DNA of 32,000 bases from Paracoccus suum (GCF_003324675.1 NZ_CP030918.1:2730001-2762000); one strand, 5' to 3'; counted from the stretch's first letter, positions 1-17,599 are shown. Numbers and translations: made by a program. Notes: generated from the sequence alone by a model not told the origin.

Positions 1-70
1 TCCGGTTCCGAGGCAGGAGGGGCCCTCAACTCTCATGCAAAGCGAGGGCCGCCGAGAACTCCGACAGTAC

Positions 71-556
71 TCAGGGACGAACCGCCGTCACCTCGATCTC
101 GACCAGCCAGTTCGGGTTGACGAGCGCGTCTACGATCATGGCCGAGCGGGCCGGCAGGTTCGGTTGTGCCTCAGTCCCGAAAAACTGGGTGTAGCCCTCC
201 ATGAAGCCCGCGAAATCGGCCGCCGCCCCTTCTGGCGCCACCAGGAAGACCTGCATCTTGACGACGTCGCCCATGGTCAGGTCCAAGTCCTTCAGCGCCG
301 CGTCGATGTTGTTCAGAACGCTGACGGTCTGGGCCTTGGTGTCGCCCCAGGCGGCGGCGGTTTTGGAATCGGCATTCTGATCGGCAACCGAAGGAACCAC
401 GCCGCTCAGATAGACCGTGGTTTTCCCCGCTGGCACTTCAACGGCGCGAGAAATGGGAAAATCGGATCCCGGCGTCTTGTGGCGAACAATGTCTTCCGCC
501 TGGGCGATCAGCGGCACGGCTCCGAGCAAAAGGGCGAGTGCGAGTGCGTTCTTCAT
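71..556 (-). CDS. RidA/YjgF-family imine deaminase with N-terminal Sec-type signal peptide (predicted periplasmic)
   Basis: 161-aa ORF. The N-terminus MKNALALALLLGAVPLIAQA/ED looks like a cleavable signal peptide. The body (TVYLSGVV, DLTMGDVVKMQVFL, PARSAMIVDALVNPNWLVEIEVTAV) matches the RidA/L-PSP pattern. A GAGGAA Shine-Dalgarno lies about 8 nt upstream of ATG 556. Confidence 0.8.
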   Translation of the reverse strand: MKNALALALLLGAVPLIAQAEDIVRHKTPGSDFPISRAVEVPAGKTTVYLSGVVPSVADQNADSKTAAAWGDTKAQTVSVLNNIDAALKDLDLTMGDVVKMQVFLVAPEGAAADFAGFMEGYTQFFGTEAQPNLPARSAMIVDALVNPNWLVEIEVTAVRP

Positions 557-615
557 GGTTCGATTTCCTCGTCATTTCCGGGGGTGGATCGGGCCCAAAG
601 GCCCGATCCGAAGCG

Positions 616-1011
616 TCAGCGTACTGCCGCGACGTCTTCCGCAGTTGTATCGCCTTCGAAGCTGTTTCCCAGATCGTGGCGGACGTAGTTCACGACATCA
701 GCGACCTGGGCGTCGTCCATGACGCCGCCCAGCGGCGGCATCGCCTTGTGACCATTCAAGACCCAGGCGATCACCGAATCTGCAGAGTCAACGAACTCGT
801 TGCCAGCCAATGCGGGATAGGCGCCGGCACCCGTGGCGCCTTGGCCGCCGGGCATGTGACAGGCGGAACAGACAGCGTTGTAGATCTCCTTGCCGCCGGT
901 CTGGGGGAGGGTCTGCGCGGTGCTAGTTTGGGCAAAATCCGCGGCGGACGCACCGATGGTCGAAGCGCCCAGAACTGCTGCGAAAACAGCCAGCGCAATA
1001 TTATGTTTCAT
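616..1011 (-). CDS. Monoheme class I c-type cytochrome, Sec signal peptide (periplasmic)
   Basis: 131-aa ORF with signal peptide MKHNIALAVFAAVLGASTIGASA/AD, a single heme motif CSACH and a distal Met candidate in HKAMPPLGG. A GAGGGAAAA SD precedes ATG 1011, which lies 21 nt downstream of the flavoprotein stop. Confidence 0.85.
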   Translation of the reverse strand: MKHNIALAVFAAVLGASTIGASAADFAQTSTAQTLPQTGGKEIYNAVCSACHMPGGQGATGAGAYPALAGNEFVDSADSVIAWVLNGHKAMPPLGGVMDDAQVADVVNYVRHDLGNSFEGDTTAEDVAAVR

Positions 1012-1032
1012 GGCTTTTCCCTCGATCCTGGT

Positions 1033-2625
1033 TCAGGCGCCGGTGACATGCGCGTGCAGACGCTCGATGGCATTCAGCGCGGACAAGATCGCGCCTTCCT
1101 GCCAAGCCGGCAGGTGCGAGATATGCTCGCCCGCCATCAGCGTCCGCTGGTCCATCTTGCAGGCGTTGGCATAGTTGCCTTCCATGTCACGCCATTCACC
1201 GTAGCAGCCCAGAGTCCACGGGACGCGATGCCAAGCCACGGCGACGCCGTTCGAGAATTCGTCGCGGTACTGCGGATGGATCTGCGAGCCGAATTCCAGC
1301 GCCTTCTCGATCCGTTCTTCGGCTGGAACGGCGTTGAACTGATACGAAGCTGCGCCCCAGGAATAGGCCCCCAACAGGACGCCCGGACCATCGCTGAAAA
1401 AGTCGGTCGACGGATAGGAAAGCAGCGTGATCGGCGTGTTGGTGTAGCTGATGCCGCCGTAGATGTGGTCGTCCTGTTCCCAGAAGCGGCGCTTGAATTC
1501 GAGGCCGACCTTGATCGAGCTCGCATAATACACGTCATCGATCGCCGCACTCATCTCGGCACCGAAATTGTTTTCGATCTGGCCAAGAACCGAGAAGGGG
1601 ATCGTGCAGATGCAGTAATCTGCGGATGCGGTTTTTTCTTCAGTCCCGCCGTTCGCATCGACCCATGTGGCGGTGACGCCGCTGTCGCTGCCCTCGATCT
1701 TGGTGACCTTGGCGTTGTAGGTGATGAGGTCCTTGACCTCTTTCTCGAATGCCTGCGCGATCATGTCCATGCCGCCCACGGGCTGGAAGATCGCCGCCTG
1801 GTGGTCGATGGATTCACCGGTGATGAGGTCCTTCCACAGCCGACCCTTGAGGATATCGGCCAGCGAGATGATGTCCGAGGGCTCGCCTGCACTTTGCGTG
1901 CCACCGCCCGGATCGACCTTCCAGCCGCGATAACCCGAGGTCGCGGCGGATTTCACGTATTCCAGCTTGTCGTCCAGAACGCCGTATTTCTTGAGCGATT
2001 CAACCAGCAGAGCGGCATCCTCGTCGGTCACCAACTCGTCCAGCTTTTTCTGGTCGACGGCCTTGGCCAGCAGCTCAGCGATCTGGCCGCGGTAATCGGC
2101 CTGGATTTCCTTGAAGCGCTGGGGCTTACCCTCGAACGCCTCGGTGTTGTGGACAAAGGCGTTGTAGTTGATCTGTATGAACGGCTGCAGCTTGACGCCA
2201 AAGCGTTTGCAATAGTCAAGAACGGCATAGTGGTCGGATGGGATGCGCCACGGACCGGGGTTCAGATAGTTGCCCTCGGCGAATTTCACTTCCTGCTTGA
2301 AGCCGCCGAGTTCGGTGTAGACATCGCCGCCGCGCAGCGTCCAGCAGCGACCGCCGGCTTTTTCGCGGTACTCCAGGATCTGGACCTTGTATCCCGCCTT
2401 GCGAAGTTCATAGGCCGCCGTCATGCCGGCCAGACCTGCGCCAAGAACCAGCACGCTGGTGCCCTTCGGATCCCCCTCAAGCTTGATCGGACCCGTGTAG
2501 TCGGACGTGCCGGCGTAACCCATGCCCGCCATCGCGGAATACATGACGGAGGCACCCGCCGTAATTCCGATCATGGCCAACAGGTCGCGCCGCGACATTC
2601 CAAGTGTGGTGTCTGTCACTGGCAT
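1033..2625 (-). CDS. Tat-exported FAD-dependent amine oxidase-family flavoprotein (bacterial L-amino-acid oxidase-like)
   Basis: 530-aa ORF with twin-arginine motif MSRRDLLAMIGITAGA and FAD dinucleotide fold VLVLGAGLAGMTAAYEL...EYREKAGGRCWT. The C-terminal flavin-amine-oxidase signature is MAGEHISHLPAWQEGAILSA. Overall pattern resembles Rhodococcus-type L-amino-acid oxidase from memory. Confidence 0.9.
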   Translation of the reverse strand: MPVTDTTLGMSRRDLLAMIGITAGASVMYSAMAGMGYAGTSDYTGPIKLEGDPKGTSVLVLGAGLAGMTAAYELRKAGYKVQILEYREKAGGRCWTLRGGDVYTELGGFKQEVKFAEGNYLNPGPWRIPSDHYAVLDYCKRFGVKLQPFIQINYNAFVHNTEAFEGKPQRFKEIQADYRGQIAELLAKAVDQKKLDELVTDEDAALLVESLKKYGVLDDKLEYVKSAATSGYRGWKVDPGGGTQSAGEPSDIISLADILKGRLWKDLITGESIDHQAAIFQPVGGMDMIAQAFEKEVKDLITYNAKVTKIEGSDSGVTATWVDANGGTEEKTASADYCICTIPFSVLGQIENNFGAEMSAAIDDVYYASSIKVGLEFKRRFWEQDDHIYGGISYTNTPITLLSYPSTDFFSDGPGVLLGAYSWGAASYQFNAVPAEERIEKALEFGSQIHPQYRDEFSNGVAVAWHRVPWTLGCYGEWRDMEGNYANACKMDQRTLMAGEHISHLPAWQEGAILSALNAIERLHAHVTGA

Positions 2626-2884
2626 TGCTCCTCGCTAGACTAAGGTCGTAGACAAAATGTCGCACCTAGCAACGGATCGGTATCTCTCGGCAAAGGGGGG
2701 GTCAACCGGCAGAGGACTGAATTTAAAGCCGCAAGGTTGGCGCTCAGTGGAACGGCGATGCGCTCAGCGCGCCGCGACCGAGCGGACGGCGGCCGTCGTC
2801 CGCTCACGGTGGATGGTCGACGTCTCAATCTCCGTCGCTCTCCCCGCCTTTCGACCGGATCGCAGCCCTCTGCCTGCTTCAGCG

Positions 2885-3121
2885 CTCAAGACCATCCTGC
2901 ACGGTCCACATACGGTTCGGTCGGTGGAGGCCTGGGCTGATCTGCGCGCTGCCCGTGCGGTGCGCGAGGTGCCGCGGCCCGAGCAACTGGGCATGGCGCT
3001 GGACGATCTGCTGCAGCCCGACCGCGCCGCCGATTATGCCGCGCGGGCCTGGGCGGTCAGCACCGCCGGGGCCGCCGTCGCGCAACGCATCGCGGCCGCT
3101 GTGCTGGCGGTCATCAACTGA
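2885..3121 (+). pseudogene. Possible 3' remnant of a Kdo transferase (waaA/kdtA-like) gene
   Basis: Only the C-terminal ~80 aa of the 154-aa ORF 2657-3121 look protein-like (ILHGPHT...LDDLLQPDRAADYAARAW...AAVAQRIAAAVLAVI). They resemble the C-terminal end of WaaA (GPHT..F...LL.D...R...) from memory. Upstream there is no room for the ~350 missing residues before the divergent gene at 2625. Confidence 0.35.
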
Positions 3122-3160
3122 CCGGTGGCCGGACCCCTGCGAGGGGATCCGGCCCCCTCC

Positions 3161-4627
3161 TCAGATCGACAGGCAGACGTATTTCAGCTCGAGGAAGTCG
3201 TCGATGCCGTAATGGCTGCCCTCGCGGCCGAGGCCGGACTGCTTGACGCCGCCGAACGGTGCCACCTCGGTCGAGATGACGCCCGTGTTCACGCCGACGA
3301 TGCCGTATTCCAGACCTTCCTGCACGCGGATGATGCGGGCCATGTCGCGGGCGTAAAAATACGACGCGAGCCCGAAGATCGTATCATTGGCCTTGGCCAC
3401 CACCTCTTCCTCGGTCTCGAACCGGAACAGCGGCGCCAGCGGGCCGAAGGTCTCTTCGGTCGCGACCTTCATGCTGTCCTTGACCCCGGTCACGACCGTC
3501 GGCTGGAAGAAGAGGCCGTCGACCCGCTTGCCGCCGGTGACGATCTTGCCGCCGCCGTCCAGCACGTCCTGGATATGCTCCTCGACCTTGTCGACCGCAT
3601 CCTTGTTGATCAGCGGGCCGGTGGTCACCCCGTCCTCGAGGCCGTCGCCGACCCGCAGCTTGTCGACCGCAGCGGCGAGGCGCCCCGCGAAGTCGTCATA
3701 GACGCCCGACTGCACATAGATGCGGTTGGCGCAGACGCAGGTCTGGCCGTTGTTGCGGAACTTGGAGGCCATCGCGCCCTCCACCGCCTTGTCGAGGTCG
3801 GCGTCGTCAAAGACGATGAAGGGCGCGTTGCCGCCCAGTTCCATGCTGCATTTGAGGACCTGGTCGGCGGCCTGGCGCAGCAGGATGCGCCCGACCTCGG
3901 TCGAGCCGGTGAAGGTCAGCTTGCGTACCTGCGGGTTCTCGCAGAACTCCTTGCCGATCTCGGACGAGCGGCTGGAGGTGACGACCGACAGGATGCCCTT
4001 GGGCAGGCCCGCCCGCTCGCCCAGCACCGCCAGTGCCAGCGCCGACAGCGGGGTCTCCGCCGCCGGGCGCGCGACAAAGCCGCAGCCGACGGCCAGGGCC
4101 GGGCCGCATTTGCGGGTGATCATGGCGTTCGGAAAGTTCCACGGCGTGATGCTGGCGACCACACCGATCGGCTGCTTCAGCACGGTGATGCGCTTGTCGG
4201 GCTGGTGGCCGGGGATCGTCTCGCCATAGACCCGCTTGGCTTCCTCGCCGAAGAACTCGATGAAGCTGGCGCCATAGGCGATCTCGCCCTTGGCCTCGGA
4301 CAGCGGCTTGCCCTGTTCGGCGGTCAGGATCTTGCCCAGGTCGTCCTGGTTTTCCATCATCAGGTCGAACCACTTGCGCAGCACCTGCGCGCGCTCTTTC
4401 GCGGTCCGGGCCGCCCAGGCCTTCATCGCCTCGGCGGCCGCCGCGATGGCGCGCGCGGCATCGGCGCGGGTCATGTCGGCAACCTCGGCAATGACATCGC
4501 CGCGGGCCGGGTTCATCACCGGAAACGTGCTCGCCCCCTCAACCCACTCACCGGCGATATAGGCCCGCGTCTGCAGCAGCGACGGGTCGCGCAAAAGGGT
4601 CCGCAGATCAGTCGAATGCTTGGTCAT
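3161..4627 (-). CDS. gabD: Succinate-semialdehyde dehydrogenase (NAD(P)+), GabD-like
   Basis: ALDH superfamily with strong GabD-like pattern: YIAGEWV, VMNPA, ITPWNFPNAMITRK, catalytic Glu in MELGGNAP, catalytic Cys in NNGQTCVCANR, C-terminal GGVKQSGLGREG. ATG 4627 (MTKHSTD...) gives the typical ~488 aa. An alternative GTG at 4678 would form a GTGA overlap with the upstream ALDH stop. Confidence 0.9.
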   Translation of the reverse strand: MTKHSTDLRTLLRDPSLLQTRAYIAGEWVEGASTFPVMNPARGDVIAEVADMTRADAARAIAAAAEAMKAWAARTAKERAQVLRKWFDLMMENQDDLGKILTAEQGKPLSEAKGEIAYGASFIEFFGEEAKRVYGETIPGHQPDKRITVLKQPIGVVASITPWNFPNAMITRKCGPALAVGCGFVARPAAETPLSALALAVLGERAGLPKGILSVVTSSRSSEIGKEFCENPQVRKLTFTGSTEVGRILLRQAADQVLKCSMELGGNAPFIVFDDADLDKAVEGAMASKFRNNGQTCVCANRIYVQSGVYDDFAGRLAAAVDKLRVGDGLEDGVTTGPLINKDAVDKVEEHIQDVLDGGGKIVTGGKRVDGLFFQPTVVTGVKDSMKVATEETFGPLAPLFRFETEEEVVAKANDTIFGLASYFYARDMARIIRVQEGLEYGIVGVNTGVISTEVAPFGGVKQSGLGREGSHYGIDDFLELKYVCLSI

Positions 4628-4674
4628 GGAAAAGGGGTCCTTTGCAACAGAACGGTTGGACGTAGGGATCGGGC

Positions 4675-6132
4675 TCACCCGCTGGCGATCGAAATGGCCT
4701 TGATCTCGGTGTAACTCAGAAGCTCTTCGATCCCTTCTTCGCGCCCTACCCCACTGTTCTTCATCCCTCCGTAGGGGACGCCGACATAGTGCGGGCCGAC
4801 GCAGTTGATCCAGACATACCCGACCCTCAGCCGCCGGCCGAGGCCCAGCGCGGCACCGACGTCGCGGCCCACGATGCTGGCCGTCAGCCCGAGCGAGGAT
4901 GCATCGTCAATGGCGATGAGTTCGCCCTCGTCGCGCCAGCGGAGCACACTCAGAACAGGTCCGAAGAACTCGTCTCGCGCCAGGGCGTTGTTGGCCGTCA
5001 CGCCGCCAAAGAGGGTCGGCTCGACCCAAAATCCCTTGGCGAACATCGCACCGGCGGGGCGGCCCCCGCCCTCCAGGATTTCCGCGCCTGAGGCCCGTCC
5101 GCGCGCGATGGCGGCCGTGATCTTGGCGTGGTGGGCCTCGGAAATGAGGGGCCCCATTCCGGTCGAGGGATCGAAGGGATCGCCGGGACGGATCGCGCGC
5201 ATGCGGGCCCGTACCCGGGCCAGGACGGCATCATGAATGTCCTCATGCAGCGCCAGGATCGAGGTCGAACCACAGGACTGACCTTGCCACTGAAAGTTCA
5301 TTCCCTCGATCGCGAGGCTGGCCGCCTTTTCCACATCCGCATCAGGCAGCACGATCATCATGTTTTTGCCGCCAAGCTCGTGGGTGATATGCTTGACGCC
5401 GACCTCCGCCGCAGAGCGCTGGATGCGTTGGGCGGTTTCAACCGAGCCGATGAACCCGATGCGTTTGATGCGCGGCTCGCGGACGATGGCGTCGCCGCAG
5501 CGCGCGCCGGTGCCGCTGAGAACGGACGCGACCCCCGCTGGCAGGTGCTCGGCGGCAAGCTCCGCCAGAATTCCCCCCGACAGCGGCGCCTGATCAGGGG
5601 TTTTGACGATAACGCAGTTTCCGGTGATCAGCGGTGCCCCCATTCTGGAAAGGGCGAAATAGAATGGATGGTTGAAGGCGACGATGCGGGCTACGACGCC
5701 GAACGGCTCGCGCAGCGAGAGGTGGACGTGGGTGGGCGTCGCAGGATAGGTCGCCCCCATGACGGCATGGCCGAGGCCGGCATAAAATTCCAGCCGGTCG
5801 GCCGCACGCAGGACGTCACTCAACATCGGCGCGAGTAGGTTGCCGGTATCCTGAACCTCGACGCGCGCGATTTCATCTGCACGGCCCCGAACCGCCGCGG
5901 CAAGTTTGCGCATGGCCGCGGCGCGCGCATCCACCGAAAGGCCGGCCCATGCGGGCCAGGCGGCGTGTGCCGCGTCCACCGCACGGCGGATATCCTCGGG
6001 GCCCGCGTCGGGCGCCACGCCCAAGGGACGGCCAGTCGCCGGGTTCACGGTAGGAAGTTCTGCCCCGTCGGCGGCGTCGCAGAGAACGCCGCCAATCAGC
6101 ATTTTCGCGCGGATCATCGAAGACCCGCTCAT
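4675..6132 (-). CDS. Aldehyde dehydrogenase family protein (substrate unknown)
   Basis: 485-aa ORF with TVNPATG, FNHPFYF, catalytic Glu in HELGGKN, catalytic Cys in QGQSCGSTS and GGMKNSGVGREEG. ATGA overlap with the upstream SBP gene at 6129-6132. Confidence 0.9.
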   Translation of the reverse strand: MSGSSMIRAKMLIGGVLCDAADGAELPTVNPATGRPLGVAPDAGPEDIRRAVDAAHAAWPAWAGLSVDARAAAMRKLAAAVRGRADEIARVEVQDTGNLLAPMLSDVLRAADRLEFYAGLGHAVMGATYPATPTHVHLSLREPFGVVARIVAFNHPFYFALSRMGAPLITGNCVIVKTPDQAPLSGGILAELAAEHLPAGVASVLSGTGARCGDAIVREPRIKRIGFIGSVETAQRIQRSAAEVGVKHITHELGGKNMMIVLPDADVEKAASLAIEGMNFQWQGQSCGSTSILALHEDIHDAVLARVRARMRAIRPGDPFDPSTGMGPLISEAHHAKITAAIARGRASGAEILEGGGRPAGAMFAKGFWVEPTLFGGVTANNALARDEFFGPVLSVLRWRDEGELIAIDDASSLGLTASIVGRDVGAALGLGRRLRVGYVWINCVGPHYVGVPYGGMKNSGVGREEGIEELLSYTEIKAISIASG

Positions 6133-7106
6133 TTGCCTACCATAGCGCCGGACGCGGCGAGGGCGGCCGTGTCCGTCATCCCCGCCGGATCGTAGGCTGC
6201 GTCAATGCTTCCGAGCTTCGCGAGCAGATCGCGTTGCCAGATCAGCTTGGCCGGGTCGATCTTGAAATCGCGCGACACGATGCCGAGGGTGACGATCTCG
6301 TCGAAAACTGCCTCCGGTTCGGGGCTTTCCGCCTTCAGATGGGCGATCTTGCGCGTCAGTGCGGTCGTCTCGTCGCGATTGGCCAAGGCGTGGGTGTAGG
6401 CATCACGCTCGGCTGCAAGGAAGGCGGCGGCATCCTCGGGTCGTTCGGCGAGCGTTTTCCCGGTGACGTAGAGGCAACGCCGCATTGCGTCGGGCAGTGC
6501 ATCAACGGCGTTCGCCACTGCATGCGCGCCTACTTCCTTGGCCTTGGCTGAAAACTCACTCGACGCTGGCGCGGCGTCGATGGCACCTGCGGCAAGCGCC
6601 TGGATGCGCTCTGAATCCGAGCCCGCTGTGACGACCGTAACGTCAGCCTCTGTCAGCCCCTCCTTGTCCAGCAGAGCCCGCGCGAACAGGTCTGGCTGCG
6701 AGCCCGGCGCCGAGACCCCGATCTTCTTACCCTTCAGATCGGCGACAGTTTGGATGCCTTCACGGCCCCACATCACGTAGGACAACTTGGGCCAATGGCA
6801 CCCGATGATCTTGATGTCAGCGCCTTTCGAGGCGGCGATCATCGGGCTGCCAATGGCTCCTTCGTAGCTGTCCAATTCACCCGCGATCAACGCCTTGATA
6901 AGAAGGGTGTCGCCCTTCAGCGTCACCATCTCAATGTCGAGGCCGTGCTTGCGGTCAAAGTCCTTTTCTGCCGCCATGAACAGGAAGCCCGCGTCGCCCT
7001 TGGCCTGCACGGTTCCGTGGCGCCATGGCTTCGCGTCCCGGGCGCAGACGGGCGCCGCAACCACGAGCAGTGAAACCGCCGATACTAAGCCAATCCATTT
7101 TTTCAT
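6129..7106 (-). CDS. ABC transporter periplasmic substrate-binding protein, NMT1/THI5-like (NitT/TauT family), paralog 1
   Basis: Start ATG 7106 (MKKWIGLVSAVSLLVVAAPVCA signal peptide) is preceded by a GGGGGGGAAAGA SD. About half the positions match the second SBP at 10582-11547 by eye (WRHGTV.AKGDAG, LDSYEG, PMIAASKG, GCHW, VSAPG). Confidence 0.8.
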   Translation of the reverse strand: MKKWIGLVSAVSLLVVAAPVCARDAKPWRHGTVQAKGDAGFLFMAAEKDFDRKHGLDIEMVTLKGDTLLIKALIAGELDSYEGAIGSPMIAASKGADIKIIGCHWPKLSYVMWGREGIQTVADLKGKKIGVSAPGSQPDLFARALLDKEGLTEADVTVVTAGSDSERIQALAAGAIDAAPASSEFSAKAKEVGAHAVANAVDALPDAMRRCLYVTGKTLAERPEDAAAFLAAERDAYTHALANRDETTALTRKIAHLKAESPEPEAVFDEIVTLGIVSRDFKIDPAKLIWQRDLLAKLGSIDAAYDPAGMTDTAALAASGAMVGK

Positions 7107-7149
7107 TCTTTCCCCCCCAAAGCGTGACACTTGTCGCATCCGCGCGCCG

Positions 7150-8910
7150 TCATTCGACTGCGGTCATTACCTCGACCACCGCGACTTTCCCTGCCCTCGC
7201 CGCGGCCGCGCCCTCGGCAAGAGCGACTGCCAACTCGGCTGGATTGGTGGCGGGCCCAAAGCCCGAAGCGCCCATGCTGCGCGCCATGGCGAGCAGGTCG
7301 ATCGGTGGATCCTCCATTCGTTGACCGACATGCGCATTGCCGACAGGGCGACCACGATGCTGGGCGACCTCGATCTGATGCAGCTCGTCATTTCCCCAGC
7401 TGCGGTTGTTCGCGATGACGATCAACATTGGCGCACCCGTATGGGCAGCGCTCCAAAGCGCGCCGCCTCCCATGACGAAATCGCCGTCGCCGAGGATCCC
7501 GATGACCAGTTTGCCGCTGTCCTTCAGCGCCAACGCCGCGCCCGCGACTGCGCCAGGGCCGTAGCCGACGCCGCCTCCCCCATCGCCGCCGAGGTAATAG
7601 CCCGAACCGGGAAAGTCCCAGATTCCCGCTTGCCAACTGCGGTGATTGCGCACCGCCAGCAACCAATCGTCACCGCGCACCTCGGCGAAGAGCGCCTCGG
7701 TCAGCTTCGCCAGGCTGACAGTTTCATTGTTGCCCGCCTCGCGTCGGTGCCGGCGGCGTGCTGCAACCTCAGCCTTACGGGCCTTCAGCGTCTCGATGCG
7801 GGCCTGGGAATTCACCCGCCGCCCTTCGGTCATCGCCGCCTCGACCGCCGCCAGCAAGGGACCCAGACTCGCGAGGGCGTCGGCATCGACCCGCAGGTCG
7901 GCGGGCGGCGTCGGTCCACCGAAACGGGCCCAGCTGCCGCCGAACTGATCGTTGCGTGAAATGTCGATGATGTAGGGGGCGGCCCTTCCCACTGCGCCGC
8001 TGCCGGAAAGGATCGCGCTGCGATTGCTGCCATAGCCCAGTGTGGCCGCCGTAAGGTCCTGGCAGTCCAGCGCGAGGATGACGTCAGCTTCACCCCGGAT
8101 GGCGCCATCCCCCTCCATGTTCTGCGGATGGGCCGTTGGCATGCAGACGATGTTCCGATCGTCCAGATAGGCCGCCCCCGTGAGTTCGACGAGCGGGGCG
8201 AGCGCGGCCGTCGTCGCAGGATCGGTGCCAAACCGCCCACCGATGATCAGCGGCAAACGCGCCGCGGCCAACACCTCCGCGATCCGGGTCAGTGTGGCGG
8301 GATCGGGAACAGAAGGCGCCGGGGCGGCAAAGCGAGGCAGAGAAGGATCGGGCAGCACAACGTCGGCATCGGCAGGGCTTTCCTGCAGCCCCGCGTCGAG
8401 AGAAACGTAGACTGGTCCGCGGGGCGCCGTGACGGAACGCCTTCGCGCCTCCAGCATCGCGTCGAGGCAGGCCTGCAGTGTTGCGGGCTCCTCCGCCCAT
8501 TTGACGAAGGGCCGAACGATGTCCGGTTGCGTCGATGCGCAGTGCGCCCAATCAATGAACCGGCGTTCTGCCGGATCTGCCGGACCGCTGCCACCGAGGA
8601 TAAGCAGCGGCACCTGATCGCAGAAGGCATTAAAAACGCCCATCGATCCGTTCAGCAACCCGACCAGGTTGTGCAAAATCGCCACCCCCGGCTCGCCGGA
8701 AGCCTTTGCGTAACCATGCGCCATGGAGACCGCGATCATCTCGTGGGTGGTCAGCACCAGCTTGGGATCGCGGTCATCGAGGCAGTTCACGATGGAATCG
8801 TGCAGTCCGCGAAAGCTGGACCCGGGATTGATGAAAGCATGACGGACGCCCATGGACCGCAGCAGCTCGGCCATCAGGTCCGAGCCGTAGACGACATCTG
8901 TCCCGGTCAT
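7150..8910 (-). CDS. Thiamine-pyrophosphate-dependent enzyme (benzoylformate decarboxylase / acetolactate synthase-like 2-keto-acid decarboxylase family)
   Basis: N-terminal TPP-pyrimidine domain (GVRHAFINPGSS...HEMIAVSMAHGYAKASGEPGV...LLNGSMGVFNAFCDQVPLLILGG). C-terminal TPP/Mg motif GDGDFVMGGGALWSAAHTGAPMLIVIANNRSWGN. Start ATG 8910 forms an ATGA overlap with the permease stop. Confidence 0.85.
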   Translation of the reverse strand: MTGTDVVYGSDLMAELLRSMGVRHAFINPGSSFRGLHDSIVNCLDDRDPKLVLTTHEMIAVSMAHGYAKASGEPGVAILHNLVGLLNGSMGVFNAFCDQVPLLILGGSGPADPAERRFIDWAHCASTQPDIVRPFVKWAEEPATLQACLDAMLEARRRSVTAPRGPVYVSLDAGLQESPADADVVLPDPSLPRFAAPAPSVPDPATLTRIAEVLAAARLPLIIGGRFGTDPATTAALAPLVELTGAAYLDDRNIVCMPTAHPQNMEGDGAIRGEADVILALDCQDLTAATLGYGSNRSAILSGSGAVGRAAPYIIDISRNDQFGGSWARFGGPTPPADLRVDADALASLGPLLAAVEAAMTEGRRVNSQARIETLKARKAEVAARRRHRREAGNNETVSLAKLTEALFAEVRGDDWLLAVRNHRSWQAGIWDFPGSGYYLGGDGGGGVGYGPGAVAGAALALKDSGKLVIGILGDGDFVMGGGALWSAAHTGAPMLIVIANNRSWGNDELHQIEVAQHRGRPVGNAHVGQRMEDPPIDLLAMARSMGASGFGPATNPAELAVALAEGAAAARAGKVAVVEVMTAVE

Positions 8911-9734
8911 TGAACGCCGCGCCCGGAGATTTCCACATGCCAGGGGGCGATGCGCCGCTCCAGCCAACCGACCGCAGCCGTCGCGATCACCGCACCAGCC
9001 ATGATGACGATGATCGGCGCCAGCATCCGCGCTGTCTCGAAGTTATTCGACGCCGTCAGGATGACGCCGCCCAACCCGGAGACGGCGGTAAAGAATTCGG
9101 CCACGATGATCGCGATCACCGCCTTGCCGATCGCGAGCCTGATCCCGGCCATGATGTAGGGCACGACGGCGGGCAGCACGATGCGGGTCAGGATGGTGAA
9201 GGGGCTTGCGACGAAGGACTTCCCGACCTCGAGAAGCGATCGGGGCACCGACTTAACTCCTATCCAGGTGTTGATGCAGATCGGAAAGAAGGTCAGCAGG
9301 GTGACGATCGCGGTCTTTACTGCGAACCCCAGTCCGAACCACAGGACCAGCAGCGGAACCAAGGCGATCAATGGCATGGCATATCCGGCGGTAACGTAAA
9401 TGCCGAAGGCGGCCTCGACCCAACGGAAGCGGCCGAGAAGAAGGCCGAAGGGGATGCCCATCACGAGGGCGAGCAGGAAGCCGGCGGCCATCGGGCGGGT
9501 GCTTTCCCATCCCGCCTTCCACAGCGTGCCTTCTTTGGCCATCACCACCAGCTCGCGGGCGATTGCGGTGGGATAGCTGCCAAACAGCGGATTCACATTG
9601 CGGCCGAAATACTCCCACAGCAAAAGCACGATGAGGATCGAGGCGGTCGTTATGGCCGGTGCCGGGACGCTGAAGCGCGCGGGCTGCGCGTCTGACGGAG
9701 CGGTGTCTTCGAGGATCACGGGATTAGAGCTCAT
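8907..9734 (-). CDS. ABC transporter permease (NitT/TauT family)
   Basis: Polytopic membrane protein with about 6 hydrophobic segments and the typical BPD_transp_1-like pattern. Start ATG 9734 (MSSNPVILED) forms an ATGA overlap with the ATPase stop. Confidence 0.85.
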   Translation of the reverse strand: MSSNPVILEDTAPSDAQPARFSVPAPAITTASILIVLLLWEYFGRNVNPLFGSYPTAIARELVVMAKEGTLWKAGWESTRPMAAGFLLALVMGIPFGLLLGRFRWVEAAFGIYVTAGYAMPLIALVPLLVLWFGLGFAVKTAIVTLLTFFPICINTWIGVKSVPRSLLEVGKSFVASPFTILTRIVLPAVVPYIMAGIRLAIGKAVIAIIVAEFFTAVSGLGGVILTASNNFETARMLAPIIVIMAGAVIATAAVGWLERRIAPWHVEISGRGVQ

Positions 9735-10585
9735 CGCAGGCCAACCTCTTGCTTGGTTTCCGGCAGGTGGCGCAGCAACTCCCACAGGTGGACACGGGCA
9801 CGACCGAACTCGGGCCGGGCGCGCATCTCGGCAAGCGGGCCGCGGGGCCGCGGAAGACCGATTTCAATGATGTCCTTCACAGCGCCGCGTTCCATGACGA
9901 CCACGCGGTCGGCCAGCAGGACCGCCTCGTCCAGATCATGGGTGACGATGATGATGGTTTTGCCGGTAGCGGCCTGAATATCCAGCAGCTCTGCCTGGAG
10001 GCTCTCGCGTGTCTGCGCGTCGAGAGCACCGAAGGGTTCGTCCATCAGCAAAACTTCGGGCTCGATCGCCAGGGCACGGGCGATTCCGACGCGTTGCTTC
10101 ATGCCACCCGACAATTGGTGAGGCTTGCGGTCGCGTGCGTTTTGCAGCCCGACCATCGCGAGGAACCGCTCGGCCGTGCGGCGGCGAAGCGGTTGCCGGA
10201 TGCCTTTGGTCATCAACCCGAACTCGATGTTCGCCAACGCGGTGCGCCAAGGCAGAAGTTCGGCGTGCTGAAACACCAAACCCCGATCATATCCGCAGCC
10301 GCGAACCCGCTTGCCCGAAACGCGGACCTCGCCGGCAGTCGCGGTCTCCAAACCCATGATGATGCGAAGCAACGTCGTCTTGCCGCATCCGCTGGCGCCT
10401 GTGACTGCGACGATCTCGCCCTTGCGAACGGCAAAATCTACGCCGCAAAGGGCCGGAATGCGCTTGGATTGACCGGCGATCGTGATCCGGAAATCCTTTC
10501 GAAGGCCGGTGATGGACACATGCGGGGCATCGGCCTCCAGGACCGCGGGCGCGGTCCAGGCATCGCGCTGCAGCGCCGCCATCAT
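9731..10585 (-). CDS. ABC transporter ATP-binding protein (NitT/TauT family)
   Basis: Walker A GASGCGKTTLL, Q-loop, signature LSGGMKQRVGIARAL, Walker B LLMDEPFGALD, H-loop VTHD. ATGA overlap with the upstream SBP gene at 10582-10585. Confidence 0.9.
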   Translation of the reverse strand: MMAALQRDAWTAPAVLEADAPHVSITGLRKDFRITIAGQSKRIPALCGVDFAVRKGEIVAVTGASGCGKTTLLRIIMGLETATAGEVRVSGKRVRGCGYDRGLVFQHAELLPWRTALANIEFGLMTKGIRQPLRRRTAERFLAMVGLQNARDRKPHQLSGGMKQRVGIARALAIEPEVLLMDEPFGALDAQTRESLQAELLDIQAATGKTIIIVTHDLDEAVLLADRVVVMERGAVKDIIEIGLPRPRGPLAEMRARPEFGRARVHLWELLRHLPETKQEVGLR

Positions 10586-11547
10586 TTCGCCGACAACGCG
10601 AGGGCGGCGCGGCGCACCGTGTCATCGACCATCGTTGCCGGATCGAACTTCGCGTCGATGTTGCCCGTTTTCGCCAGAACGTCGCGCAGCCAGTTCAGCT
10701 TTTCGACCGGGACATTGAAATCCATCGCAATGACCCCGGGTTTGCTGGCGAGGTCGTAAGCATAGGCTGCGGTTTCATCGCCATCGGGAAGTTGGGCGAT
10801 CTTCTTGGACAGCGCCAAGGTCTCGTCCTTGTGGGCAAAGGCGTATTTATAAGCTGCCATCTCCGCCGCAATGAATTTGGCCGCGGATTCCTTGGTCGTC
10901 GCGTCTCCGCGCATGACCATGCACAGTCGCATGTAATTGGGTAGCATCGTCTGGCCATCGACGATGGGTTTCAGTCCCAGCTTTTCCGCCTGTGGGGTAA
11001 ACTCGGTCGACGACGGCGCCGCGTCCGCGACGCCGGAGACAACGGCCTTGACGCGGTCCGCGTCCCCTCCGGACGTGACCAAGGTTACCGAGTCGACGGG
11101 AATGCCCTTCTCGATCAGGACCGCCCGCGTGAAAACATCCGGCAATGCCCCCGGCGCCGAAACGGCGACCGTCTTGCCCTGAAGGTCCTCGGCGCTCGCC
11201 AAGGTCTTGGAGAAGATCGAGTATGTAAAGCCCTGCCAGTGGCAGCCGACGATCTTGAGCTTGCCCCCTTTGCTGGCAGCGATCATGGGGCCGGCAGGGT
11301 TGCCCTCGTAGCTGTCGAGCTGGCCAGCCAGCAGCGCCCTCAGGGCCAGCGCGTCGCCCTTGAATTCGCTGACCTGGATGTCGAGACCCTGTTTTTCATC
11401 CATCCCCCCCTCGGCAGCCATGTAGATCAGGCCCGCATCGCCTTTCGCGGCGACCGTCCCGTGCCGCCAGACTTCGAGATCGGCCGCCTGGGCCGCGAAA
11501 GCGGTACAAGCTGCGAGCGCGGCGGTAAGCGTCATTCGGCTTAGCAT
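10582..11547 (-). CDS. ABC transporter periplasmic substrate-binding protein, NMT1/THI5-like, paralog 2 (first gene of the operon)
   Basis: 321-aa ORF with signal peptide MLSRMTLTAALAACTAFAAQA/AD and a strong SD AAGGGGAGA 5 nt upstream of ATG 11547. Paralogous to the product of 6129-7106. Confidence 0.85.
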   Translation of the reverse strand: MLSRMTLTAALAACTAFAAQAADLEVWRHGTVAAKGDAGLIYMAAEGGMDEKQGLDIQVSEFKGDALALRALLAGQLDSYEGNPAGPMIAASKGGKLKIVGCHWQGFTYSIFSKTLASAEDLQGKTVAVSAPGALPDVFTRAVLIEKGIPVDSVTLVTSGGDADRVKAVVSGVADAAPSSTEFTPQAEKLGLKPIVDGQTMLPNYMRLCMVMRGDATTKESAAKFIAAEMAAYKYAFAHKDETLALSKKIAQLPDGDETAAYAYDLASKPGVIAMDFNVPVEKLNWLRDVLAKTGNIDAKFDPATMVDDTVRRAALALSAK

Positions 11548-11600
11548 CGATATCTCCCCTTATCTCTCCCGCCTGCAGAATCCCGCGGGTCCATTCGGCA

Positions 11601-11624
11601 TGTATTATTGTATGACAGAATGAC
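11601..11624. promoter_or_regulatory. Putative GntR/FadR-type operator (core TGTATGACA at 11609-11617)
   Basis: An AT-rich patch tgtattatTGTATGACAgaatgac lies in the 113-nt gap upstream of the ABC/TPP/ALDH operon. The core has the GT-N-AC architecture typical of GntR-family operators. The same 8-mer recurs at 14195 and 17600. Confidence 0.5.
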
Positions 11625-11660
11625 GGCCGTTCTCCCGTCGCGCAAGAACTTTCCGGCGCC

Positions 11661-12899
11661 TTAGTCCAGTTTCATGGCTGCGGCAGTTCGCTGCGCACGC
11701 AACATCGAGCTGCCGAGCAGGAATGCCTTTGCCTTGACGGGATCGGCGGCGATCTGGCGCAGGTTCTCCATGTTCTCGCGCCGGGTCTCAGGGTCGGAAG
11801 CCTCGAGCCGCTTCTTGTTCTCGATGCTCTGCGCCTGGACGAAGTTGATCGAAAGCGAGCGTCTTTGCAGATCGTAAAGGTCCAAAACCTCCTCGCCCGC
11901 ACGGCCGTGCCAGAGGTCCGATAGCTTGGCGACCAGATTGCCCGCGTCCTGGATTCCGCCGTTCAGACCCATCCCGCCGATGGGATTGTTGATATGTGCG
12001 GCGTCGCCCGCGAGCAGAATGCGTCCCTTCCGGAACCGCTCGGCCACCCGTTGATGCACGCGGTAGAGATTGCGGTGAACAATCTCGTGGTCGCGATCGA
12101 GCGGAAAGAATTTCTGCATCTTTGCCTGCACCGCCTCGTCGGACATGATCTCGTCCTCGCTGAGGTCAGTCGAAACCGGGAATACCGTCCGCCACAGGCC
12201 GGGCGGGCCATCCGCGATCACCTTGAAGCAGTTGCACCACTCCTCGGGGTCCGCAAAGTAGCTGCGAAAGCAATACCCCCGCTCTGCTTCGAAATCGAAC
12301 GGGGTGGTTAGAACCAGAAACTGCTCCGGGTAGGTGAAGCCGTCGAAAGGAATTTCCGCGGCCTTCCGGACCAGGCTGCGCCCGCCATCCGCGCCGACCA
12401 GCCAGCTGCCGGTCAGCCGGCTGGGTGCGTCTTGTGACCCTGTCGGGCGAACATCCAGCCAAACGCCGTCGTCGTCCTGGCCTGCGGCGACCACGTCGTA
12501 ACCCATCATGATTTCCGCGTCCGCCTCTCGGCGCAGGTGCGCCAGGGCAATACGCGATGTCTTGAACTGTTCGCACTGCACCACATAGGGAAAGCGCGTT
12601 TCGTCTGCGAGCAGCCCGTGGTCGAACTCGGCTACCAGCTCGCAGGCTGGTCGATCCCAGAACTGAAATACTGGCGCGACCAGACCGGCTGCGCGGACCT
12701 CGCCCTCCAGCCCGAAATCGTCCAGCACTTCCAGCGTGGCTGGATGGGTCGTCGCCGCCCGTGGATCGTCCCTTATCTGGCTTTCACGCTCGACGAGCGT
12801 GACGGGGACTCCCCGGCGGGCGAGCCCCAGCGCGACGAGCAATCCTACGGGGCCGCCGCCTGCGATCAGAACTCGGCCTTGGATATTGTTGTCGGGCAT
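11661..12899 (-). CDS. Class A FAD-dependent monooxygenase (aromatic/heteroaromatic ring hydroxylase family)
   Basis: GxGxxG fold VLIAGGGPVGLLVALGLARRGVPVTLVERE, DG motif VGADGGRSLVRK and GD motif LLAGDAAHINNPIGGMGLNGGIQDAGNL. ATG 12899 is preceded by a GAGGA SD that overlaps the stop of the upstream amidohydrolase. The track start at 12911 is a TTG. Confidence 0.85.
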   Translation of the reverse strand: MPDNNIQGRVLIAGGGPVGLLVALGLARRGVPVTLVERESQIRDDPRAATTHPATLEVLDDFGLEGEVRAAGLVAPVFQFWDRPACELVAEFDHGLLADETRFPYVVQCEQFKTSRIALAHLRREADAEIMMGYDVVAAGQDDDGVWLDVRPTGSQDAPSRLTGSWLVGADGGRSLVRKAAEIPFDGFTYPEQFLVLTTPFDFEAERGYCFRSYFADPEEWCNCFKVIADGPPGLWRTVFPVSTDLSEDEIMSDEAVQAKMQKFFPLDRDHEIVHRNLYRVHQRVAERFRKGRILLAGDAAHINNPIGGMGLNGGIQDAGNLVAKLSDLWHGRAGEEVLDLYDLQRRSLSINFVQAQSIENKKRLEASDPETRRENMENLRQIAADPVKAKAFLLGSSMLRAQRTAAAMKLD

Positions 12900-12907
12900 C
12901 GGAATCC

Positions 12908-14107
12908 TCAATGTGCTGCGGCGCCGGAAAAATCGAATGGCACCCGGTTCTGGGCGACGCGAACCTGGCGCGTGGTGGCTGGCGTATTTCTGCTGCGGCC
13001 TACGAACCGGGGAACGCCGCCCGAGATCACGGCCCCGATGGCGACCGGATCGCCGTTGGAAAGCGACGCCAGCGCATCCTTGCCCGAGCCGCCAAGCGGG
13101 GTGTCGATGAGCGCCAGGTCCGCGTCGCGTCCGGGGGCGATAAAGCCACTATTTCGACGGTAGACGCGGGCATTACTGCCTGTCGCCGCGCAGATCGCGC
13201 GCTCAGGGGCGATGCCGCCCAGGCTCGCGAGGTGGCTGATCGTGTAGATCATCCCCAAAGGCATGATACCGCTGCCAGTCGGGGTGTCGGTCGCGATCAG
13301 CACCCGCTCAAAGCAACCAGCCTCCTCGGCCAGCCTGGCGCATAGAAGGGCGGTGCGAAGATTGCCCGCCGTGCAGATTTGCAGAGCCACGTCGCTTTCA
13401 GCGATGACTTTGGGAAAATCCGCGTCGGGCATGGCGACCGGGCCGCCATTGACATGGAACGACACATCGGGCGCGACGGCGATCACATCGGCACCATGTA
13501 TCGGCGCACTGCCGGGAATGGACGCACCGCCAGTGTGCATTGTCGTGATCATGCCGTGGGCCTTGGCCGCGGCGACCAGCGGGGCGTAGTCGCCTGGACT
13601 TGCCACGGCGCCGAACCCCGCCTTGGCCAACCAGACCCCCTGAGCCGCAAGCTGTGCAAAATCCTCAGCGACGAGGCCGGGCTCCAGGATCACCGAACCC
13701 GCCCAAACCCGCATCCCGCCGGGACGATAGTTGGCAAAGCAGCGTTGCGCCGCCAGTGCCAGGGCTTTCACACCTTCCGGGTCTATAGGGCGGCCGGGCA
13801 CATGGACCTCGGATGCGCTTATGGCAGTCGTCACGCCGCCGTGGAGGTAGCTCTCCAGGTAACCGACCGTTTTTTGCCGCGGCGTGTAATCGCCGAAGGT
13901 GATGTGGACATGACTGTCGATCAGGCCGGGAATCAGAGTGGTGCCGCCAGCGTCGATGACAACGTCACAGCTTTCGACGAGGCCGGGATCTGCGGTCCCG
14001 ACCGAGTGGATCAGCCCACCCTCGGTCACGACCGCGTCGGCGTTGCCGAGAGGCTCGGCCAAATCCCCCGTTACAAGCTGACCGATGTTGGTGATTGCGA
14101 TCCGCAT
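12908..14107 (-). CDS. Metal-dependent amidohydrolase-superfamily hydrolase (enamidase-like subgroup, tentative)
   Basis: 399-aa ORF with the N-terminal composite domain and HxH metal motif PGLIDSHVHITFGDYTPRQKT, then LHGGVTT, MHTGGASIPGS, HVNGGP and a late Asp in IATDTPTGSG. Resemblance to enamidase is from memory only. An AAGGGG SD precedes ATG 14107. Confidence 0.8.
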   Translation of the reverse strand: MRIAITNIGQLVTGDLAEPLGNADAVVTEGGLIHSVGTADPGLVESCDVVIDAGGTTLIPGLIDSHVHITFGDYTPRQKTVGYLESYLHGGVTTAISASEVHVPGRPIDPEGVKALALAAQRCFANYRPGGMRVWAGSVILEPGLVAEDFAQLAAQGVWLAKAGFGAVASPGDYAPLVAAAKAHGMITTMHTGGASIPGSAPIHGADVIAVAPDVSFHVNGGPVAMPDADFPKVIAESDVALQICTAGNLRTALLCARLAEEAGCFERVLIATDTPTGSGIMPLGMIYTISHLASLGGIAPERAICAATGSNARVYRRNSGFIAPGRDADLALIDTPLGGSGKDALASLSNGDPVAIGAVISGGVPRFVGRSRNTPATTRQVRVAQNRVPFDFSGAAAH

Positions 14108-14194
14108 AAGCCGCCCCTTGTGTCTCGGTATCCCGGTCTCCGCTGCGGCCTTCGGCCAACAGAGCTTTCTCTCTGGTGAGACTAGAAAAACTTT

Positions 14195-14219
14195 TGTATG
14201 ACGAGAATACAGTATGTCA
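14195..14219. promoter_or_regulatory. Putative GntR/FadR-type operator pair in the divergent promoter region (TGTATGACG 14195-14203 plus related aGTATGTCA 14212-14219)
   Basis: The sequence ttTGTATGACgagaatacaGTATGTCAa lies between the divergently transcribed amidohydrolase operon (start 14107) and the EthD-like/GntR operon (start 14233). It is the most AT-rich patch of the intergenic region. Confidence 0.5.
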
Positions 14220-14232
14220 ATGGGAGACCGAC

Positions 14233-14886
14233 ATGGCGGGCGCAGTTCTTTTCTCGGAGATGACCCCTTCCCCGGACTGGGAGGGCGAGTTCAATGAGTG
14301 GTACGACAACGAACACATCCCCTTGCGCATGACGGTGCCGGGATTCACGGGCGCCCAACGCTACAAGCGCAATGACCGCGATTACCTCGCTGTCTACGAC
14401 ATGACCGGCACCGACGTCCTGCAAACCCCGGCCTATGTCGAAATCAAGGACAATCCGACGGCCATGACTGCGCGGATGCTCGGTTCCGTAGGCGGATTTA
14501 CCCGCTACATCGGCACCGAGATCGGCTTTCAGTCTAACGTGGCGCTTGACGACGCAATTCCCGCTCCGGTGCTGTATTCCGTACTATTTTCAGTTCCCGG
14601 CGACCGGCTTGGCGACTTTGACGCGTGGTATGACCAGGACCATCTGCCCGCCCTCCTCGAAAACCCCGACTGGCTGGCTTGCCGTCGCTTTTCGCTCGAA
14701 GTCGCGCATCCGCAACCTTTCAACCGCCTCGCGCTTCACTACCTGGCCACTGACGAAGCCTTGGATTCCCCGGCCCGCGAGAAGGCCCGTGCAACGCCCG
14801 GGCGGGCGCGGCTTGCCGCCGAGCCTTGGTTTCAGGCCGATTATAAGGTCTTTTACCTCCACGGCGAACGGTTTAGCGCAAGGTGA
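14233..14886 (+). CDS. Tandem EthD-like / dimeric alpha-beta-barrel domain protein (function unknown)
   Basis: ATG 14233 is preceded by a GGGAGA SD, and the track start GTG 14176 would run through the operator region. There is an internal duplication: EGEFNEWYDNEHIPLRMTVPGFTGAQRY versus LGDFDAWYDQDHLPALLENPDWLACRRF. The F..WY...H.P motif resembles EthD-like domains from memory. Confidence 0.6.
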   Translation: MAGAVLFSEMTPSPDWEGEFNEWYDNEHIPLRMTVPGFTGAQRYKRNDRDYLAVYDMTGTDVLQTPAYVEIKDNPTAMTARMLGSVGGFTRYIGTEIGFQSNVALDDAIPAPVLYSVLFSVPGDRLGDFDAWYDQDHLPALLENPDWLACRRFSLEVAHPQPFNRLALHYLATDEALDSPAREKARATPGRARLAAEPWFQADYKVFYLHGERFSAR

Positions 14887-14895
14887 CGGCGTAAA

Positions 14896-15609: not shown

Positions 15610-15616
15610 TCGGATT

Positions 15617-16987: not shown

Positions 16988-16988
16988 C

Positions 16989-17567
16989 TTAGCGCGCGCT
17001 CTTGCGGGCCACGACCTCTTCATGTGTCAGGCCGCCCACCCGGGCGTTCAGCCGTCCACCGCTGGCCGCGCAAAAGATGAGCGCGACCTCGTCCGCCCGC
17101 GGGCCGTTGGGCACTGCGATGGTCATGCCGTCGTAGTGCGACCGCACGTAGACCTCGTCCTTGTGGTTCATTGGAATGTCGATGGGCGTGTTCGGTGCGA
17201 CGACCTTCTGGAAGGAGGAGATCCAAGCCTCGCCGCCACCGATCTGCGCGCGGATAGGATCGGCAAAGGCCGTCGTCAGCAGAGCGTTGGCATGCTCTTG
17301 CTCGCCATCCAGACCGACGAGGCCGCCTTTTCCGTAGCTCTGCACCTCGCACCCATCCATCAGATCAACGAGCTTGCGACCCATCTTTTCGCCCAGCGCC
17401 GGGCTCGCGTCGATGAGTTCTCGAAGGTCGGCACCCGAAGTCCCCGCCATCGGGTTTTCCAGCACGAACACCACGGCGGCTTTGCGCAGAGGCTCCTCAA
17501 CACGCGTTGCGCCGTCCTCCCAGACATCTTCTACGAAGGAGAGGACGCGGCGAATGTTCAGATTCAT
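16989..17567 (-). CDS. Amino-acid-synthesis (AA_synth, PF06684-like) family protein of unknown function
   Basis: The ~192-aa product (MNLNIRRVLSFVEDVWEDGA...KAAVVFVLENP...QSYGKGGLVG..GEQEHANALL...) matches my memory of the AA_synth family. ATG 17567 is preceded by a GGAGAG SD. Confidence 0.75.
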   Translation of the reverse strand: MNLNIRRVLSFVEDVWEDGATRVEEPLRKAAVVFVLENPMAGTSGADLRELIDASPALGEKMGRKLVDLMDGCEVQSYGKGGLVGLDGEQEHANALLTTAFADPIRAQIGGGEAWISSFQKVVAPNTPIDIPMNHKDEVYVRSHYDGMTIAVPNGPRADEVALIFCAASGGRLNARVGGLTHEEVVARKSAR

Positions 17568-17599
17568 GTAACTCTCCAGCATGGCTCAGCAGATATTAC

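Follow-up and report, generated by a model that had tools for sequence, protein, structure and literature searches.

The closest described relative of the genes treated here is the lao-cccA-ridA operon (GDI2456-GDI2454) of Gluconacetobacter diazotrophicus PAL5, a sugarcane bacterium, reported in 2016 by Rodrigues et al. (PMC5053998). Two independent Tn5 insertions in GDI2456 (lao) abolish the conversion of tryptophan to indole-3-pyruvate and indole-3-acetic acid (IAA). lao clusters with GDI2455 (cccA, encoding a cytochrome c) and GDI2454 (ridA), and insertion in lao lowers all three transcripts. A 38-residue twin-arginine (Tat) signal was noted on the GDI2456 product. It was proposed that the enzyme is periplasmic, that the cytochrome is its redox partner, and that RidA is an imine hydrolase. 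The cluster was said to be conserved in Caulobacter and Xanthomonas. Mutants in cytochrome c maturation (ccm), as cited in the same paper, lose ~95% of IAA production (all PMC5053998). Here, we analyze three genes of this kind in a 32,000-nucleotide stretch of DNA from Paracoccus suum (GCF_003324675.1 NZ_CP030918.1:2730001-2762000), hereafter called the window.

Other described systems share parts of this arrangement. RidA and Rid3 genes cluster with genes for flavin adenine dinucleotide (FAD) amine oxidases, as reported by Niehaus et al. in 2015 (PMC4433059). Two Rid3 proteins, PSPTO_3006 and PFL_1385, hydrolyze in vitro the imino acids produced by L-amino acid oxidase and by DauA (Hodge-Hanson and Downs 2017, PMC5619798). 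Akram et al. (2025) described over 100 flavoprotein amine oxidoreductases that are exported by Tat and encoded beside a cytochrome c; the representatives tested act as dehydrogenases that depend on the cytochrome, and their rate constants are 1e4-1e6 M-1 s-1 (PMC12224317). In Chlamydomonas reinhardtii, a periplasmic LAO1 and a RidA-like LAO2 are encoded in the same gene cluster. This system obtains nitrogen from amino acids outside the cell, and with tryptophan it also forms indole-3-pyruvate and IAA (PMC10805672).

The three window genes are arranged as follows.

1033-2625, minus strand: lao-like flavoprotein gene, an open reading frame (ORF) of 530 aa
616-1011, minus strand: cccA-like cytochrome c gene, an ORF of 131 aa
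71-556, minus strand: rid gene, an ORF of 161 aa

The spacers are 21 nt between lao and the cytochrome gene (1012-1032) and 59 nt between the cytochrome gene and rid (557-615). The ORF table thus gives the same three minus-strand genes, at the same coordinates and with the same gaps, that an earlier note made from the sequence alone had described. On reading of the sequence, a GAGG-type ribosome-binding site lies 5-8 nt 5′ of the start codon in all three genes. A promoter and terminator scan of bp 1-3400 found no terminator-like sites between lao, the cytochrome gene, and rid. The hidden Markov model searches that the note had proposed were run, and PF01593, PF13442/PF00034, and PF01042 are matched by the respective products.

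Judged by its sequence, the window trio is a Paracoccus copy of the lao-cccA-ridA operon type. In a BLASTP alignment, 261/523 residues of the window Lao (50%, E = 0) are identical to those of G. diazotrophicus Lao, CAP56399, a sequence that was machine-read from a figure and may hold a few read errors. The window Lao is nearer to this protein than to the L-amino acid oxidase of Rhodococcus opacus (36%). The earlier note had taken the arrangement to be undescribed, and the 2016 report of the PAL5 operon refutes that claim (PMC5053998). As the operon type had already been published, the window locus adds a further copy and no discovery of its own. The result reported here is comparative. That is, a cytochrome c gene almost always accompanies the flavoprotein gene in this L-amino-acid-oxidase clade, and a Rid protein, where linked, is predicted to be exported. 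We think it probable that the system is an exported L-amino-acid dehydrogenase that delivers electrons through a dedicated cytochrome c to respiration, with the Rid3 protein hydrolyzing the imino acid product.

In a homologue scan limited to a single genome for each species, a relative was encoded at no fewer than 592 loci. The best 80 of these, with 55-73% identity to the window flavoprotein and with 5-kb flanks each, served as the co-conservation sample, which covers alpha-, beta-, and gammaproteobacteria and one Vicinamibacterales assembly. Neighbor genes in the 80 loci were detected by tblastn with the three window proteins, and the N-termini were then inspected. The cytochrome gene is directly downstream of the flavoprotein gene in 79/80 genomes, and 78 of the 79 linked cytochromes have a signal-like N-terminus and a single CxxCH.

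This linkage bears on the proposal that the flavoprotein is a true H2O2-forming periplasmic L-amino acid oxidase and that the cytochrome serves elsewhere, for instance as the donor to a peroxidase or in general electron transfer. With a monoheme cytochrome gene immediately downstream in 79/80 genomes from three proteobacterial classes, it is difficult to account for the linkage unless the flavoprotein and the cytochrome are direct partners. Moreover, a class I cytochrome of 10 kDa with His/Met ligation has no peroxidase function of its own. The G. diazotrophicus ccm mutants lose the lao-dependent phenotype (cited in PMC5053998), which also argues against an oxidase that reacts with O2. The oxidase proposal draws its support from other members of the family: the nearest homologue that is both solved and characterized is an O2-dependent oxidase, the Chlamydomonas LAO1/LAO2 pair makes H2O2 and has no cytochrome partner (PMC10805672), and some Tat-exported relatives are oxidases or use both acceptors (PMC12224317). 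On balance, we consider a peroxide-forming oxidase fairly unlikely and a cytochrome-c-linked dehydrogenase the better reading.

The third gene of the presumed dehydrogenase system is less constant. A Rid homologue directly follows the cytochrome gene in 44/80 genomes and is found elsewhere within 5 kb in 4 more; in the remaining 32/80 loci (~40%), a Rid gene is absent within 5 kb. Because the cytochrome gene is linked in 79/80 loci and the Rid gene in 44/80, the flavoprotein-cytochrome pair is reckoned to be the core and the exported Rid a frequent accessory. Thus, the co-conservation of the trio expected in the earlier note is borne out for the cytochrome and holds for Rid in just over half of the loci, and the "hard-wired" RidA of that note is better described as an accessory. 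No common replacement gene was found in the Rid-less loci, the downstream genes of which are heterogeneous.

The trio is also present in Devosia, Halomonas, and Paracoccus aminophilus, where the flanking genes are unrelated in each case; it therefore behaves as a module. The 80-genome scan also recovered the trio in Xanthomonas. A Caulobacteraceae assembly carries all three genes, with the Rid gene upstream on the opposite strand. The G. diazotrophicus protein was not among the 120 matches listed in a search with the Lao of Belnapia (locus L042), a member of the Acetobacteraceae, as the query.

Where Rid is linked, it is predicted to be exported: 43 of the 44 Rid homologues in the operon carry, directly before a conserved (D/E)V(I/V)RH motif, either a Sec signal or a Cys lipobox. 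This signal peptide is not pointed out in the papers on this operon and on Rid3 that are cited here. Together, the 79/80 cytochrome linkage and the 43/44 linked Rid proteins with export signals make the dehydrogenase hypothesis sharp and easily testable.

The features of the three products that bear on their assignment are as follows.

2512-2625, minus strand: predicted Tat signal peptide of Lao, residues 1-38, from sequence reading
2578-2595, minus strand: twin-arginine motif SRRDLL (S11-R-R-D-L-L16) of Lao, from sequence reading
2425-2442, minus strand: FAD-binding GxGxxG (G62-G64-G67) of Lao, invariant in 83/83 aligned homologues
943-1011, minus strand: predicted Sec signal peptide of the cytochrome, residues 1-23, MKHNIALAVFAAVLGASTIGASA/AD, from sequence reading and a hydropathy heuristic on homologues
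856-870, minus strand: single heme-binding motif C48-S-A-C-H52 of the cytochrome, from sequence reading
497-556, minus strand: predicted Sec signal peptide of Rid, residues 1-20, MKNALALALLLGAVPLIAQA/ED, from sequence reading
146-148, minus strand: putative catalytic arginine R137 of Rid, in a PARS motif, invariant in 49/49 aligned Rid sequences

Signal peptides were called from motifs, the hydropathy heuristic, and conservation among homologues. The three export signals of the earlier note hold at the motif level, namely, SRRDLL in the flavoprotein and Sec-type signals in the cytochrome and Rid, and they are conserved among homologues.

The flavoprotein matches PF01593 (Amino_oxidase) over residues 65-519 (E 9e-55). 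Its best match among solved structures is the R. opacus L-amino acid oxidase, 2jae (E 1.6e-88, residues 51-527, 36.4% identity), followed by other L-amino acid oxidases (ancestral vertebrate and snake venom) and L-glutamate oxidase. The window flavoprotein can thus be assigned to the L-amino acid oxidase clade of the flavin amine oxidoreductase superfamily, much as the earlier note had it in calling the protein an L-amino-acid-oxidase-like member of the FAD amine-oxidase family. In addition to the GxGxxG glycines, residues E85, R127, and Y421 are invariant in the 83/83 aligned homologues. In the alignment with 2jae, R127 falls on the Arg of GATRIP and Y421 on the second Tyr of AYYSSG. These two residues are the probable ligands of the substrate α-carboxylate in L-amino acid oxidases.

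A substrate other than an α-amino acid, i.e., an amine or another C-N compound, with Rid acting on a different imine, would fit some of the database names, as homologues are annotated "flavin monoamine oxidase" and "tryptophan 2-monooxygenase". It would also fit the nicotine-type amines on which other cytochrome-c-using members of the superfamily act (PMC12224317). The structure matches argue otherwise. The similarity to L-amino acid oxidases is full length, whereas putrescine oxidase, monoamine oxidases, and LSD1 align with Lao at the FAD-binding N-terminus only; among the 60 best of 99 solved-structure matches, amine oxidases that are not amino acid oxidases cover just Lao residues ~54-108. 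The Arg and Tyr aligned with the R. opacus enzyme are invariant, and the G. diazotrophicus mutants concern the step from tryptophan to indole-3-pyruvate, indole-3-acetamide being not detected in that study (PMC5053998). An amine substrate is, in our judgment, very unlikely, and an L-amino acid is the substrate we favor.

Export of the flavoprotein is predicted from its N-terminus, in which the hydrophobic stretch that follows SRRDLL ends GYA/GT at residue 38. An RRx[FLIVA][LFIV] motif lies 5′ of the FAD domain in 76/80 Lao homologues, and a KR variant is found in 3 more. The latter are the sphingomonad loci L059, L066, and L073, in which Lys-Arg replaces the twin arginine (SKRDLL, TKRDLL) and the signal is otherwise conserved.

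The cytochrome matches PF13442 (E 7e-15) and PF00034 (E 9e-10). Its signal ends ASA/AD at residue 23, exactly one CxxCH is present in each homologue examined, and Met91, within KAMPP, is the candidate axial ligand. These features mark the cccA-like product as a predicted monoheme class I c-type cytochrome exported by Sec.

The Rid protein, 100% identical to DRW48_13320 of P. suum, matches PF01042 (E 5e-19). Among solved structures, it is most similar to two Rid3 proteins, PSPTO3006 (E 4.5e-35) and PFL1385 (E 2e-23). The residues held to define Rid3 are an Arg, a Glu, and an Ile that replaces the Tyr of RidA (PMC4433059). In the window protein, these correspond to R137, to E153, which is also invariant in the 49/49 aligned sequences, and to Ile35, kept in 48/49. 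By these residues, the window Rid is classed as a member of the Rid3 subfamily. The earlier note had named loss of the conserved Arg as a finding that would speak against its reading; R137 is present and invariant. The predicted signal ends AQA/ED at residue 20. The PSPTO3006 PDB chain (144 residues) aligns from its residue 7 to Rid residue 27, so the first ~20 residues of the window Rid are an N-terminal extension relative to that chain.

Some linked Rid proteins have a different N-terminus. In those of L032 and L035 (two Alteromonas species) and L062 (a gammaproteobacterial metagenome-assembled genome), a Cys follows the hydrophobic signal region and is itself followed by a short linker. The same Cys and short linker are seen in the operon-linked Rid of L020 (Hyphomonas) and L038 (Ponticaulis). 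The Cys suggests a membrane-anchored lipoprotein form of Rid rather than a soluble periplasmic one.

A simple sequence of steps can be proposed for the dehydrogenase system. The flavoprotein would be loaded with FAD and folded in the cytoplasm and then exported by the Tat pathway. In the periplasm, it would oxidize an L-amino acid to the 2-imino acid. The co-encoded monoheme cytochrome, exported by Sec and matured by Ccm, would re-oxidize the reduced flavin in two one-electron steps and pass the electrons to a terminal oxidase. The window contains a candidate, although any cytochrome c oxidase would serve:

23095-24750: CcoN-type gene (PF00115), from the Pfam match

Finally, with the help of the Sec-exported Rid3, the imino acid would be hydrolyzed faster, giving the 2-oxo acid and ammonium. 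The net effect would be to turn external amino acids into ammonium, 2-oxo acids, and respiratory electrons. Because the electrons would leave via the cytochrome to the terminal oxidase, little or no H2O2 is expected. We infer the substrate class from homology and the conserved residues, and the electron acceptor from the gene linkage, the NicA2 precedent discussed below, and the ccm phenotype of G. diazotrophicus. The role given to Rid follows from the in vitro data on two Rid3 proteins. The functional part of the earlier note's reading is the part that is best supported, by the 79/80 cytochrome linkage, the signal-bearing Rid, and the invariant Arg; the part that did not stand is its claim of novelty.

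Several points weigh against the dehydrogenase proposal. Use of cytochrome c has been shown only for NicA2-related relatives. The tested cytochrome-c-dependent dehydrogenases come from a set assembled by BLAST from NicA2, in a study that mentions neither amino acid oxidases nor Rid proteins (PMC12224317). The amino acid oxidase clade appears to lie outside that survey, and cytochrome c use by the window flavoprotein is an extrapolation. The closest characterized enzyme, the R. opacus L-amino acid oxidase, truly uses O2. That 32/80 loci have no Rid gene within 5 kb indicates that Rid is dispensable for the core reaction. The signal peptides were called from motifs and with a custom heuristic, which chooses whichever start codon looks most favorable. 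Lastly, the only genetic evidence on substrate concerns tryptophan, in another genus.

A rival proposal overlaps with ours: that the trio is a dedicated auxin module, taking tryptophan through indole-3-pyruvate to IAA, rather than a system for general amino-acid deamination and respiration. The sole genetic data for the operon type are indeed tryptophan-dependent IAA production and a plant-root phenotype (PMC5053998), and many carriers are plant-associated (Bradyrhizobium, Mesorhizobium, Xanthomonas, Azospirillum, Nitrospirillum). Other carriers are marine or wastewater bacteria without a plant link, such as P. suum, Alteromonas, Halomonas, Sulfitobacter, and Hyphomonas. Just upstream of the window trio, a thiamine pyrophosphate (TPP)-dependent enzyme and two aldehyde dehydrogenases could in principle turn the 2-oxo acid into the acid, but their genes are not kept beside the trio elsewhere (Devosia, Halomonas, P. 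aminophilus). The recurrent neighbors of the related loci are, instead, TonB-dependent receptors, Opp/Dpp-type ATP-binding cassette (ABC) components, and M20 or S9 peptidases. These neighbors fit peptide and amino-acid acquisition, though they are only suggestive, and they point to general peptide and amino-acid use. The R. opacus homologue, according to the cited literature, is broad in substrate range. We regard a module devoted to auxin as unlikely and a general amino-acid dehydrogenase as the preferred reading.

The genes just mentioned belong to a catabolic island at 3161-19611, mostly on the minus strand. It includes two aldehyde dehydrogenases, two NMT1-type binding proteins with ABC permease and ATPase, the TPP-dependent enzyme (7150-8967), an FAD monooxygenase, an amidohydrolase, a GntR/FCD regulator, an amidase, a PF06684 protein, and a glutamate-synthase-like protein. 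The island is not beside the trio in the other genomes compared, i.e., Devosia, Halomonas, and P. aminophilus. Co-function of the trio with the aldehyde dehydrogenase/TPP-enzyme island was therefore considered and rejected. The earlier note had reported no linked regulator or transporter, and none abuts the trio. It had also placed a cbb3 oxidase locus in the window, which fits the CcoN-type gene. In the segment 20664-24750, a CcoI-like heavy-metal P-type ATPase (HMA, E1-E2 ATPase, and hydrolase domains) is followed by this PF00115 heme-copper oxidase subunit I gene.

The spacer between the upstream aldehyde dehydrogenase gene and lao is unusually long, 535 nt (2626-3160). An Rfam scan of bp 1-3400 (E ≤ 1) gave zero matches, and so no known riboswitch or leader is found in this spacer. 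A plus-strand ORF within it (2657-3121, 154 aa) has zero Pfam matches. One promoter-like site lies upstream of lao (3033-3060, minus strand) and is not above chance; likewise, the promoter and terminator counts in 1-3400 do not exceed those of shuffled sequence. The G+C content is 0.60-0.63 in the first 3 kb of the window vs. 0.67 in the next 3 kb.

The cytochrome-rid spacer contains one further feature:

586-609, minus strand: perfect 10-bp hairpin, GGAUCGGGCC-UUUG-GGCCCGAUCC

The hairpin has a minimum free energy of -26.7 kcal/mol and a z-score of -2.4, and no U-run follows it. Stems of at least 8 bp occur in the cytochrome-rid spacer of 10/43 related loci, always in those with longer spacers. 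The hairpin may be an intercistronic RNA element that sets the ratio of rid to the upstream transcript.

Variants of the arrangement were seen among the related loci. In Devosia lacusdianchii (L001), a fourth gene right after rid (6509-6892) encodes a second small cytochrome c (PF00034); the P. suum window stops 70 nt past rid. In Novosphingobium sediminicola (L073), the segment 3024-4985 holds a paralogous flavoprotein gene, the product of which is 48% identical to the window protein and which lies immediately upstream of the main one, and an extra cytochrome-c-like match at 3024-3296. This looks like a tandem duplication of the core pair. In Xanthomonas, an azurin-like ORF with a copper-site-like ...FFCSFPGHWAMMKG... 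lies ~1.3-1.5 kb downstream of the trio (L054, 8882-9442; L055, 9029-9595), and ORFs similar to it form a cluster across four loci. A flavoprotein-cytochrome pair of 57% identity is also present in the acidobacterial Vicinamibacterales metagenome-assembled genome (L027), which suggests either horizontal spread beyond the Proteobacteria or a binning artefact.

As for the clade as a whole, present in at least ~590 species-representative genomes, we lean slightly to the view that it forms another lineage, independent of those known, in which so-called "oxidases" are in fact dehydrogenases, with Rid3 as a dedicated imino-acid deaminase. If so, bacteria would have a periplasmic respiratory route for amino-acid oxidation, and a bacterial Rid3 protein would have its first physiological role and its first periplasmic localization. 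Should the cytochrome prove to be the acceptor, amino acids would be deaminated outside the cell in a peroxide-free reaction linked to respiration, a defined role in vivo would fall to Rid3, and many database entries for "L-amino acid oxidase", "monoamine oxidase", and "tryptophan 2-monooxygenase" would be misnamed dehydrogenases.

The window system resembles each of the known systems in part. The R. opacus L-amino acid oxidase (2jae) has the same fold and family, with 36% identity over ~470 residues, the aligned Arg and Tyr, and a twin-arginine-type signal of its own (TRRSF). It differs in being an O2-using, H2O2-forming oxidase of a Gram-positive bacterium, and it has no reported partner of either the cytochrome c or the Rid type. 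NicA2/CycN and Pnao of Pseudomonas putida S16 share with the window system the PF01593 domain, the Tat signal, and a monoheme class I cytochrome c in the same operon, and they serve as the working model for electron transfer. They differ in their nicotine-type amine substrates and in having no reported Rid partner, and their likeness to the window flavoprotein is limited to the FAD-binding N-terminus.

PSPTO_3006 and PFL_1385 (PDB 9bka and 9bkc) have in common with the window Rid its conserved Arg and Glu and the Ile typical of Rid3. They were studied as purified proteins without a known physiological partner, and export is not discussed (PMC5619798), whereas the window Rid has a predicted Sec signal and sits in an operon with its presumed imine source. 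The Chlamydomonas LAO1/LAO2 system is similar in pairing an extracytoplasmic L-amino acid oxidase with a RidA-like partner. Unlike the window system, it belongs to a eukaryote and consumes O2 with release of H2O2, and it lacks a cytochrome c partner.

The PAL5 operon is the closest of all. It has the same three genes in the same order and orientation, and a Lao of 533 aa as compared with 530 aa in the window, each with a Tat signal of ~38 aa. The roles proposed for its products also match those proposed here, although the roles of the cytochrome and of localization are proposals in that paper too, which notes no RidA signal peptide (PMC5053998). The host of the PAL5 operon is a plant endophyte and that of the window trio a Paracoccus, and the sequence comparison between the two operons covers Lao. 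Thus, one widespread three-gene system joins the auxin genetics of G. diazotrophicus, the cytochrome-c-dependent flavoenzymes of the NicA2 type, and the Rid3 imine deaminases.

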